Shown in pieces: positions 4,969 to 6,614 of a stretch of DNA of 64,000 nucleotides. The position numbers and the translations under genes are program-made. Source of the stretch: a virus (Duplodnaviria > Caudoviricetes); IMG/VR virus record IMGVR_UViG_2934390892_000001, positions 1-64,000 of that record, one strand, 5' to 3'. How positions within the stretch are numbered: the stretch's first letter is position 1; the number at the start of each line of letters is the position of its first letter. The notes under the pieces were generated by a model. That model ran no database searches. It was not told the origin of the DNA and was given only the letters and a program-made list of their open reading frames with translations.

Positions 4969-6614
4969 GCACCCCACAGACTTCCGCCCCAGCTAGCGGG
5001 ATCACGACGCCCAGGGAGTTCTCGTTGGGGCGGAACAGCATTTCCCGGTCGACCCCAGATCTGTCGACGCCCGTCGCTGAAGCGTTGGCCGGGTCAGGCT
5101 CCCTCGACGGCCAGGCCCCCGCCGACACCCAAGACGCGAGCGCTGTCGAGGGCAACTCTTCCCCGCAGGCCATATCTGATCCGGATCCCACATGGTCCGC
5201 GCCTGCGGGGACCTCATCTACGGCAGCGGCCAAAAGGAGCGCGTCTCCCAATGACTCCTCGCTGCTGCCGTTCAAGGCCAGCCAGGCCGCCCCAAACTGC
5301 TCCGACGCCCATCGTGAGTGCGGTGGCCTGGCTGAAGACCTCCCCGGCGACCAGGGTGACCCCGATTCCCATTGTTCAAGCGTCGCCGGGGACTCAGCTC
5401 AGCCGACAGCCATAGATCTGCCACTTCCCAAAGCAGCCTCGCTGTCGGCTGCCAATTCCCCCCGGACGGCCAATACACGCTCGTCGGCCATACACGACAC
5501 GCCGTCCGGGGATCAGCTTCCGCGAGAGGCCAGCGTAAGCTCGGCGCCCACATGGGCAACGCCTCTCGCGGATCAGACTCCGCCCCTGGCCATAGATCGT
5601 GCGCTCTCCAAAGCCGATTTGCCAGGGGTGGACGAAGCAGGGTCGTCGGTTCCGGCCGTACGCGAAGCGATGCCCATACGGCTACCGCCGGAACTGGCAG
5701 ACCCGCTCCTCGCTCTCGCCGCCGATGTCCTCGACGACCTGGAGTCGGTGTGGATCGCCAACACCAACCGCCTCCGGCAGCTCACCCGCGACGTTGAAGA
5801 CTCGGACGGGGAGGAGCGCGGCTTCGGCCTGACGCTCGACCACCCCGACGTCGCCCGCCTCGCCGCCCTCGTTGAGGCGCTGGACAAGGCGCAGCAGGAC
5901 GCAACGAAGAACCTCACGAAGAGGCTCAAGTCCCACCCGCTCGCGCCGTGGCTGAAGGCCCAGAAGGGCGTCGGCGACAAGCAGGCCGCGCGCCTGCTCG
6001 CGTCGATCGGCGACCCGTACATGCGGCCCGAGATGCGGTTCGAGGACGGCACCGTCGAGCCTGCACGCCCCCGCCGCGTAAGTGAGCTGTGGGCGTACTG
6101 CGGCTACCACGTCATGAACTTCCCCGCTGGTCAGCTCACGACCGACACCCATCTGGTCAGCGCCAGCGGGGGTAAGACCGGCCACCTCGACCAGAGTAGA
6201 AGCGATACCCATGCGTCGGGCGTCGGGGTGGCCCCCAAGCGGGCTCGGGGCCAGCGCGCGAACTGGTCCAGCACGGCAAAGATGCGCGCCTACCTCATCG
6301 CCGAATCCACGATGAAGCAGCTCAAGCGCACCTGCCCGGCCGACGAGGAACGCGGTTACGCCACCCACACGGACGGGTGCGAGTGCTCCCGCTACCGCAA
6401 GGTCTACGACGCCGCCCGCGAGAAGTACGTGGATGCCATCCACCACGCGGAGTGCGTCCGCTGCGGCCCGAAGGGCAAGCCCGCCCCGGTCGGCTCCGAC
6501 CTGTCGCGCAAGCACAAGCAGGCCCGCGCCCTCCGCATCGTCTCCAAGGAACTCCTGAAGGACCTGTGGCGCGAAGCGCGGCGCATCCACCTCGGAGAGG
6601 AGGAGACGACGTGA
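4965..6614 (+). CDS. Nop-domain / IS110 C-terminal-like RNA-binding protein (TasA-like, no nuclease domain); true start uncertain (4965 or ~5628/5670)
   Basis: Coiled coil, then WLKAQKGVGDKQAARLLASIGD, SELWAYCGY, RGQRANWS, YRKVYD and HKQARALRIVSKELLKDLW; no DEDD RuvC or HNH motifs. Confidence 0.8.
   Translation: MSTPQTSAPASGITTPREFSLGRNSISRSTPDLSTPVAEALAGSGSLDGQAPADTQDASAVEGNSSPQAISDPDPTWSAPAGTSSTAAAKRSASPNDSSLLPFKASQAAPNCSDAHRECGGLAEDLPGDQGDPDSHCSSVAGDSAQPTAIDLPLPKAASLSAANSPRTANTRSSAIHDTPSGDQLPREASVSSAPTWATPLADQTPPLAIDRALSKADLPGVDEAGSSVPAVREAMPIRLPPELADPLLALAADVLDDLESVWIANTNRLRQLTRDVEDSDGEERGFGLTLDHPDVARLAALVEALDKAQQDATKNLTKRLKSHPLAPWLKAQKGVGDKQAARLLASIGDPYMRPEMRFEDGTVEPARPRRVSELWAYCGYHVMNFPAGQLTTDTHLVSASGGKTGHLDQSRSDTHASGVGVAPKRARGQRANWSSTAKMRAYLIAESTMKQLKRTCPADEERGYATHTDGCECSRYRKVYDAAREKYVDAIHHAECVRCGPKGKPAPVGSDLSRKHKQARALRIVSKELLKDLWREARRIHLGEEETT
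4982..5697 (+). ncRNA. Stem-loop TIGR-like guide array, 12 units
   Basis: 12 tandem hairpins spaced 58-66 nt apart; stems of ~10-13 bp differ in sequence and each closes a 30-nt loop with consensus CCA-N9-CG-N4-CCA-N9-CG. Confidence 0.85.
6120..6233 (+). ncRNA. Two additional TIGR-like guide hairpins embedded in the Tas-like CDS
   Basis: ccccgctgg-TCA-gctcacgac-CG-acac-CCA-tctggtcag-CG-ccagcgggg and gccacctcga-CCA-gagtagaag-CG-atac-CCA-tgcgtcggg-CG-tcggggtggc. Confidence 0.8.

Follow-up and report, generated by a model that had tools for sequence, protein, structure and literature searches.

Here we report on a stem-loop array of tandem interspaced guide RNAs (tigRNAs) and its effector gene, tasA, in a 64,000-nucleotide (nt) stretch of DNA (hereafter the window) from a virus of the Caudoviricetes (Duplodnaviria; IMG/VR record IMGVR_UViG_2934390892_000001, positions 1 to 64,000). 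Positions 6121-6233 very probably hold two genuine stem-loop tigRNA genes of a TIGR-TasA system, which lie in frame in the part of tasA that encodes a disordered wedge loop. The same DNA would be read in two ways: as RNA, each unit would fold into a stem of 11-12 bp, and as protein, the units would supply ~37 residues that are tolerated by the Nop fold of the effector. The original prediction knew of no description of this layout, but in-frame intragenic stem-loop tigRNAs are already found in Xu et al. (bioRxiv 10.64898/2026.09.09.750476). The layout is thus published, the window is a further example of it, and the find itself is not new.

The published grammar of tigRNAs comprises a box C (CCA), a box D (a pyrimidine followed by G) and two 9-nt spacers, one for each DNA strand, and in stem-loop arrays the place of the edge repeats is taken by variable palindromic stems (Faure et al. 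2025, PMC12045711). All 14 units of the locus in the window follow the common pattern CCA-N9-CG-N4-CCA-N9-CG inside a stem of 11-12 bp. Intragenic unit 1 (6121-6172, + strand) is enclosed by a 5' arm at 6121-6131 and a 3' arm at 6162-6172; its first half consists of a box C spelled TCA (6131-6133), spacer A (6134-6142), a box D CG (6143-6144) and a linker (6145-6148), and its second half of box C' CCA (6149-6151), spacer B (6152-6160) and a box D CG (6161-6162). Intragenic unit 2 (6180-6233, + strand) has its arms at 6180-6191 and 6222-6233, with box C CCA at 6191-6193, spacer A at 6194-6202, box D CG at 6203-6204 and the linker at 6205-6208 in the first half, followed by box C' CCA (6209-6211), spacer B (6212-6220) and box D CG (6221-6222) in the second. 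An inverted-repeat search found the stem of unit 1 as 9-nt arms (6122-6130/6163-6171) of 100% complementarity, or 11 pairs if two outer G-U pairs are counted, and that of unit 2 as 12-nt arms (6180-6191/6222-6233) of 92% complementarity, in which the single non-Watson-Crick position is a G-U pair. The first box C of unit 2 (6191) stands 60 nt after that of unit 1 (6131). A CTT is present at the stem base of unit 1 (6119-6121), and the 3' arm of unit 2 also encodes the conserved G-V-A of the protein motif GVAPKR.

The remaining 12 units form an array upstream of tasA (4982-5697, + strand) with a period of ~60 nt and box C starts at 4993, 5053, 5111, 5170, 5230, 5291, 5351, 5410, 5470, 5530, 5590 and 5656; the inverted-repeat search recovered arms of 11-12 nt, separated by 30 nt, every ~60 nt over 5101-5632. 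In a gapless alignment of 13 units, which comprises 11 of the 12 upstream units (the 5053 unit is excluded) and the two in-gene units, the last stem pair joins the first C of CCA to the G of CG, the letters C28, C34, C35, A36 and G47 are invariant, all stem cells are paired (143/143), and compensatory changes occur at 10 of the 11 pairs. A scan of the 64,000 nt by stem alone (10-bp stem, at most one mismatch, loop of 26-35 nt) returned 60 hairpins, of which 13 fall within 4982-6233 and 47 are spread over the other ~62.7 kb. When boxes and stem were scanned together over both strands of the whole 87,045-nt genome, the 14 units were found at the locus, 13 of them with 11/11 stem pairs and one with 10/11, and outside it just 15 weaker background matches (box 8-9/10, stem 9-10/11). 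The cluster of 14 units, including the two in the gene, is not due to chance. With a covariance model (CM), unit 1 scored 53.9 bits (E 1.7e-9), as one of the model's own training sequences; with default filters the CM search listed 6 of the 13 training units of the window and so undercounts units, the likely cause being that its 62-nt matches overlap at a period of 60 nt. An Rfam search of 4000-7500 gave no family at E<=1. The array was also considered as a CRISPR array and rejected as such: no family of direct repeats extends over the units, in which conservation is limited to boxes of two or three letters.

The gene tasA (5670-6614, + strand) encodes 314 amino acids (aa) from ATG 5670; the gene-caller version (P0001) begins at GTG 5628. 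In PHROGs the product matches phrog_4285 ('transposase', E 2e-85), and a profile of 46 homologs matches the TIGR-TasR protein TaTasR (9mty_A) over its whole length (E 2e-12) and TasH chains at E 1e-3. An AlphaFold2 model built with the 46-homolog alignment (mean predicted local distance difference test, pLDDT, 85.9; predicted template-modelling score 0.81) has two long N-terminal coiled-coil helices, which are followed in the prediction by a helical C-terminal domain with the Nop core; a model from the single sequence was of no use (pLDDT 44). In Foldseek, the top ten matches of the 46-homolog model are all TasR or TasH chains (E 1.9e-7 to 5.7e-5, template-modelling score 0.43-0.62), and next come IS110 recombinases (E 0.02-0.05) and then archaeal and eukaryotic Nop5/56/58 proteins. 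Pfam gave no family above cutoff, the sole listing at E<=1 being EABR (E 0.19, 11.8 bits against a cutoff of 25), and no nuclease domain was found in the Pfam results at E<=1 or in the model, which makes the protein a TasA rather than a TasR or TasH. As judged from sequence and predicted structure, the gene product is a nuclease-less Tas protein, TasA, composed of a coiled coil and a Nop domain. The 14 units match the published tigRNA grammar, their stems are variable but palindromic, and the effector is of the Tas type; by these features the locus belongs to the stem-loop TIGR-TasA systems. An identity as an IS110-family transposase was rejected, as Pfam listed no DEDD_Tnp_IS110 or Transposase_20 match at E<=1, the protein has only the coiled coil and the Nop domain, and IS110 structures rank below Tas structures in Foldseek; the relatedness of its RNA-binding domain to that of IS110 explains the 'transposase' labels on phage homologs. 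In the C-terminal domain, H258, C262 and C265 are invariant and a C-x-C lies upstream of them (6340-6480, residues ~225-272), a pattern that suggests a small metal-binding insertion.

An open frame of 549 codons (4965-6614) extends back from tasA over the whole upstream array. A reading in which the array is translated as the N-terminal domain of a 549-aa protein was considered and rejected: the upstream units occupy all three registers, and of 114 upstream spacings in 30 loci 51 are not divisible by three. The conserved core of TasA starts at the coiled coil, and what is open upstream of that core is the array itself. Stops in the 42 wedge units of the related loci described below number 0 and 3 in two registers and 22 in the third, so that an open frame across an array is expected fairly often by chance. 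The homologs as delivered by gene callers measure 274-548 aa and include long 'disordered N-termini'. The last upstream unit (5646-5697) overlaps the predicted start of tasA, with ATG 5670 inside the 4-nt linker that leads from box D to the second box C, the expected binding place of a Tas protomer; this overlap is not conserved, as the annotated starts in Mycobacterium phage Euphoria and in prophiFSAT01-1 lie 25-32 nt past the last unit.

The segment of TasA that the two intragenic units encode is an insert at residues 151-183 (6120-6218, + strand), predicted to be disordered, which is the sole part of the model with a pLDDT <50. The profile alignment places the insert between residues 213 and 218 of 9mty, and the wedge of TaTasR has been defined as G210-K230 (Xu et al.), so the two units encode an insert in the wedge loop. 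The original prediction had put this loop roughly where IS110 carries its catalytic serine loop; the alignment identifies the site as the wedge loop of Tas. Intragenic units have been found to correspond to disordered regions (Xu et al.), and the unit-encoded peptide in the window, ~37 residues long, is rich in Pro, Gly, His, Gln and Asp. On most structural points the original prediction was borne out: the two complete hairpins that it placed at 6120-6233 lie there, its four 9-nt spacers are identical to the variable stretches between the conserved letters, and the geometry that it described as that of the upstream array is the grammar of the 12 upstream units, bar the TCA of unit 1. The frame runs unbroken through both units, which add ~37-40 residues where about 40 aa had been proposed, and the site lies between the two motifs named, with WAYCGYHV on one side and APKRARG on the other.

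The TasA family is large: of 8000 candidates that were scored, 1865 proteins reached E<=0.001. The spacing of two anchors that bracket the wedge site, W-x-Y-x-G and N-W-S, was measured in the best 120 proteins, of which 103 had both anchors (four of these were cut short by a false anchor) and 17 without recognisable anchors were dropped. The distances fall into classes of 23-25 residues (2 proteins), 44 residues (1), 57-63 residues (65), 75-82 residues (27), 97-99 residues (2) and 119 residues (2), which correspond to 0, 1, 2, 3, 4 and 5 units of ~19-20 residues. An alignment of homologs had been proposed as a test of whether the loop varies in steps of ~20 aa, and the loop is indeed quantised in this way. 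At the DNA level we compared 46 sources: the window and, drawn from records of phages, viral contigs, genomes and metagenomes, 45 related loci; both anchors were present in 30 sources including the window, and the 16 without anchors were left out. Metagenome relatives show 27-58% identity, and proteins that are 75-86% identical were compared at the protein level.

Defined by their stems, wedge units number none in 11 loci, one in 5, two in 9, three in 3 and five in 2. The total is 42 units in 19 of the 30 loci, all in one reading register (two were called 3 nt further out, with a shifted start index), and all 23 spacings within wedges measure 57, 60, 63 or 66 nt. Upstream of the gene, units are present in 28 of the 30 loci, with hairpin arrays among others at Mycobacterium phage Euphoria, prophiFSAT01-1 and Gordonia phage BENtherdunthat, the last of which carries, in addition, two wedge units where the window has its own. 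The 90 phage records that match TasA belong to phages of Mycobacterium (83), Gordonia (5), Rhodococcus (1) and Arthrobacter (1); the labels of homologs among the 40 of these 90 matches that were listed include 'transposase', 'hypothetical protein', 'DNA binding protein' and 'helix-turn-helix DNA binding domain protein'. Euphoria has a hairpin array of 4-5 units within a 336-nt 'intergenic gap' before its TasA homolog, gp70. The BENtherdunthat locus (L001) contains four more hairpin units (1480-1661, 1900-1962) ~1 kb upstream of tasA, three of them within gp57 (1322-1897), which is annotated as a hypothetical gene, and the fourth in the gap that follows gp57. In four other loci a unit is found at or just beyond the 3' end of the tasA match (L004 3301-3362; L015 1825-1886; L022 1905-1966; L023 1834-1895), so that arrays can flank the gene on both sides.

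The comparison distinguishes selection on the RNA from selection on the encoded peptide. When wedge units were registered by their boxes only, 28 units in 15 of 16 loci showed 9-11 of 11 stem pairs (27 of the 28 had 10 or 11), and 11 out-of-register matches had just 1-7. In the converse set, registered by stems only, the box letters are retained in 39-42 of the 42 units, and the spacer columns are near uniform, with no letter in more than 19 of 42. In this set 97% of 462 stem cells are paired, a figure that is partly circular because the set was chosen for pairing, which leaves the box-registered set as the independent check; compensatory change occurs at 10 of 11 pairs, neither the pairing nor the covariation score was equalled in any of 500 shuffles, and in slid controls 32-59% of the cells pair. 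Codon positions give the same picture. The third positions of spacer codons have a G + C content of 60%, equal to that of positions 1 and 2, where the flanking tasA sequence has 84% at third positions (n=4176). Four letters of the boxes occupy third positions; of the 168 positions concerned 95% hold C and none holds G, which makes up 33% of flanking third positions, and the codons that these box letters close specify from 5 to 14 different residues. Among eight close homologs the flanks are 72-86% identical and the insert 40-60%; the residues shared in the insert are, as judged by eye, mostly encoded by stems and boxes, and the box letters, read in this register, spell out the peptide pattern G-Q/H ... 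D/G-x-H/Q ... A/V-G. Covarying stems, near-invariant boxes and spacers that are free even at third positions point to selection on RNA. The idea of guide units would have suffered from conservation of the amino acids with no covariation of the hairpins; the homologs present the opposite, with covarying hairpins and no conservation of the residues encoded by spacer codons. In the compared sequences, the RNA reading thus dominates the protein reading at the wedge units.

In the mechanism that we envisage, an early-operon transcript would carry the upstream array together with tasA, and the units would be excised as single stem-loop tigRNAs and loaded onto TasA, by analogy with the published relatives. 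TasA would act as a dimer that recognises the box C/D letters of a hairpin, and each of the resulting ribonucleoproteins would attach to 18 bp of DNA, with one spacer per strand. Since TasA lacks a nuclease domain, binding, repression or occlusion would follow rather than cutting; repression or occlusion has been demonstrated for other TasA and dead-TasR proteins (Xu et al.). The nuclease that releases stem-loop tigRNAs is not known (Xu et al., Discussion). Units 13 and 14 of the locus, those in the gene, would be released only at the expense of the message that carries them, and the guide output of the wedge would therefore compete with the synthesis of TasA, unless these units have a promoter of their own. 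Excision that destroys the tasA message, or bound TasA that blocks ribosomes, might in this way couple guide production negatively to effector synthesis, a proposal to which we give slightly less than an even chance; a coupling of maturation and translation is raised as a possibility by Xu et al.

A related but improbable alternative makes such control the main role of the intragenic units, which would then act in cis as TasA-binding or processing sites on the tasA message and limit the synthesis of TasA, with the autoregulation proposed in the original prediction as their primary function. The units are necessarily on the tasA mRNA, no promoter-like or terminator-like site was predicted on the + strand over ~3550-7500 in a scan with a sigma-70 consensus, of no more than approximate use in actinobacteria, the idea of coupling has been floated in the literature as just mentioned, and the last upstream unit overlaps the predicted start codon. 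A cis-acting site needs boxes and a stem and gains nothing from two free 9-nt spacers, yet the spacers of the wedge units turn over like those of the upstream units. Moreover, 11 of the 30 loci, including Euphoria, lack a wedge unit, and the start codon is not overlapped in Euphoria and prophiFSAT01-1, so any such control in cis would be dispensable. This alternative is compatible with the reading as tigRNA genes and does not exclude it.

The other explanations fare much worse. The wedge units could be neutral relics, that is, array units that were duplicated into a tolerant loop and now decay with no function as RNA; a locus with a 40-aa loop and no scorable unit (L027), another with a 67-aa loop and one intact unit (L018), and the frequent changes in unit number would fit such a history. 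We consider it very improbable, as decay would erase both the boxes, which are kept in 39-42 of 42 units with the third-position bias to C given above, and the pairing of the stems with its compensatory changes. It is more improbable still that the peptide is what is selected, with a 20-residue repeat (P-A-G-Q/H ... D-x-H/Q ... A-G-G) that lengthens the strand-separating wedge and hairpins that are a by-product. In its favour, solved Tas complexes show the wedge loop in contact with tigRNA and with DNA (Faure et al. 2025; Xu et al.), and the 42 wedge units share one reading register. The residues of spacer codons are not conserved, however, and spacer third positions carry no coding bias; the codons of the box letters encode many different residues and yet end in C in nearly every case, disorder is predicted for the segment, and upstream units with the same motifs stand in all three registers at spacings of which 51 of 114 are not multiples of three. 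An element that acts as DNA, with cruciforms for replication, recombination or packaging, would suit the early/replication region and the Sak4-like gene downstream, but is barely credible, because all but two weak matches (E 0.016 and 0.049) among the 154 CM matches listed (E<=1, 34 loci) lie on the tas strand, the letters conserved are those of the box C/D grammar, which is strand-specific and belongs to a known RNA, and the G-U pairs tolerated in the stems point to pairing as RNA.

Several observations nevertheless weigh against two genuine tigRNA genes. The first box C of unit 1 reads TCA instead of CCA. The stem base of unit 2 lacks the CTT/CTC motif that Xu et al. tie to processing (CUU/CUC in the RNA); among the 13 aligned units of the window this motif is CTT in four, CTC in four, another pyrimidine-T-pyrimidine in one and absent from four, and among the 42 wedge units of relatives the corresponding numbers are 9, 12, 1 and 20. 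The centroid structure of 6100-6250 displays both hairpins, and the folding free energy of this segment is no better than that of shuffled sequences (z -0.67; 56 of 200 shuffles at least as stable). The conservation of the stem in the last unit may stem in part from a constraint on the protein motif GVAP, and to this must be added the partial circularity of the stem-registered pairing noted above. Finally, in-silico searches of the phage's own genome and of viral contigs found no DNA target above chance for the units.

In the search for self-targets, the 14 units were compared in two 18-bp arrangements of the spacer pair with both strands of the 87-kb genome, and no site was found at two or fewer mismatches; at three mismatches there were three sites against ~1.9 expected from 182 mismatched spacer-pair controls, which is no evidence of self-targeting. 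Four exact-pattern scans of viral contigs, in which each intragenic unit was tried in two arrangements with a gap of 0-2 nt, gave 2, 0, 1 and 0 matches. Two of these are in contigs of 44-48% G + C; the third lies in the major-head-protein gene of a 70%-G + C viral contig (L048 9159-9177) and is the exact reverse complement of spacer B of unit 2, one base and spacer A. We treat the matches in viral contigs as chance, since by a rough estimate, made with no control patterns, a few matches to an 18-mer are expected in such a collection.

The numbers of wedge units are scattered over the family tree. A FastTree phylogeny of 99 homologs with the wedge removed (midpoint root; support values not considered; a stricter tree anchor lost the two zero-unit proteins, P0090 and P0115) requires at least 23 changes of unit number, against a mean of 29.4 and a minimum of 25 for shuffled labels. 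Sister proteins differ, with three units in P0007 and two in P0006, three in P0036 and two in P0034, and four in P0064 and two in P0032. As judged from these data, whole units are gained and lost rapidly at the wedge site, in steps of 57-63 nt, and the unit size of 20 codons preserves the frame. The scatter fits the other possibility raised in the original prediction, that the loop is a hotspot for the gain and loss of units. Given the uniform register and spacings divisible by three, duplication inside the loop seems a likelier source of new units than their repeated capture from upstream. Soil-metagenome contigs from four runs (>=80% likeness) bear on the spacers as well: one contig of 3,238 nt aligns to 5686-6700 without gaps and differs from it at 61 positions, in two single contigs 6112 is joined to 6221 and 6127 to 6222, with unidentified letters between (the joint sides are short, 30 and 44 letters), and the match of another stops at 6130 and continues as a different box-spacer-box string. 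These contigs, which come from unidentified organisms, fit a turnover of spacers weakly.

A more far-reaching reading, which we regard as rather unlikely in its full form, is that the wedge loop is a live guide array inside an open reading frame, in which units would be gained and lost and spacers replaced about as fast as the tree resolves, and that the dosage of the effector would be set by the guides cut from its own message. If the array is live in this sense, the family would hold a natural record of how a TIGR array expands with no Cas1/Cas2-like genes, a question that was named as open by Faure et al. (2025).

The window has a G + C content of 67%, and by its gene annotation tasA lies in the early rightward region of a temperate phage. 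Upstream are a helix-turn-helix regulator (3520-3831), an excisionase-like gene (3828-4157) and a gene of unknown function (4366-4968, phrog_4604), which is separated from tasA by ~700 nt of periodic hairpins; downstream, several small genes stand between the end of tasA (6614) and a gene for a Sak4-like ATPase (7956-8864). The locus is a clean, well-preserved case of DNA that doubles as codons and guide RNA; it is carried by a temperate actinobacterial phage, beside immunity and early genes. Its comparison with relatives adds that the number of units is quantised from 0 to 5 at one site, statistics for codon positions, and close relatives that differ mainly in their spacers. Neither the quantisation, nor a codon-position test, nor the lability on the tree was seen in the parts consulted of the published papers; the supplementary table of Xu et al. 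and their TIGRSafari resource may already include the clade, perhaps with its numbers of wedge units. The clade is convenient for two questions about TIGR systems, namely how units and spacers are acquired and whether the excision of guides from the tas message limits the synthesis of Tas, and the comparison exposes a problem in the labelling of TasA homologs in phages.

Among known systems the closest is BlTasA of Bifidobacterium longum, which has two tigRNA-coding regions in the wedge loop and whose intragenic tigRNAs were recovered by small-RNA sequencing (Xu et al.). It shares with the window a nuclease-less TasA, an upstream stem-loop array, two in-frame tigRNA regions in the wedge and an actinobacterial host. 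The two appear to differ in lineage, no Bifidobacterium being found among the 90 matching phage records; in the window, moreover, box D is CG, and of the two intragenic units just the first has the CUU at its stem base. PlTasA, from a gut contig of Peromyscus leucopus, likewise has variable palindromic stems and a dimer of nuclease-less TasA (Faure et al. 2025; Guan et al., bioRxiv 10.64898/2026.08.11.744272), but its 13 units form three subarrays with an intergenic region of ~450 nt between, and in-gene units are not mentioned in the portions of text cited; nor does the searched text of Faure et al. (2025) mention intragenic units. The TIGR-TasR and TIGR-TasH systems (TaTasR, 9MTY; SpTasH, 9W04) have in common with the window the Nop fold, the coiled coil, box C CCA, two 9-nt spacers that read both strands and the place of the wedge loop. 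They differ in their conserved edge and loop repeats, in a RuvC or HNH nuclease domain, and in 36-nt tigRNAs that are matured by a Tyr/His site, which is absent from stem-loop Tas proteins (Xu et al.). The IS110/IS1111 bridge-RNA recombinases (IS621, 8WT6/8WT9; ISCro4, 9T56) have a related RNA-binding domain, as reflected in their Foldseek matches, whereas the window has no DEDD/RuvC-like domain and no element ends, and carries a guide array instead of one two-loop bridge RNA. A parallel is found in eukaryotes, where intronic box C/D small nucleolar RNAs are guides nested in a protein-coding transcription unit and released by processing of the transcript. Those guides sit in introns and are never translated; in the window, by contrast, the letters of the guides are themselves codons.

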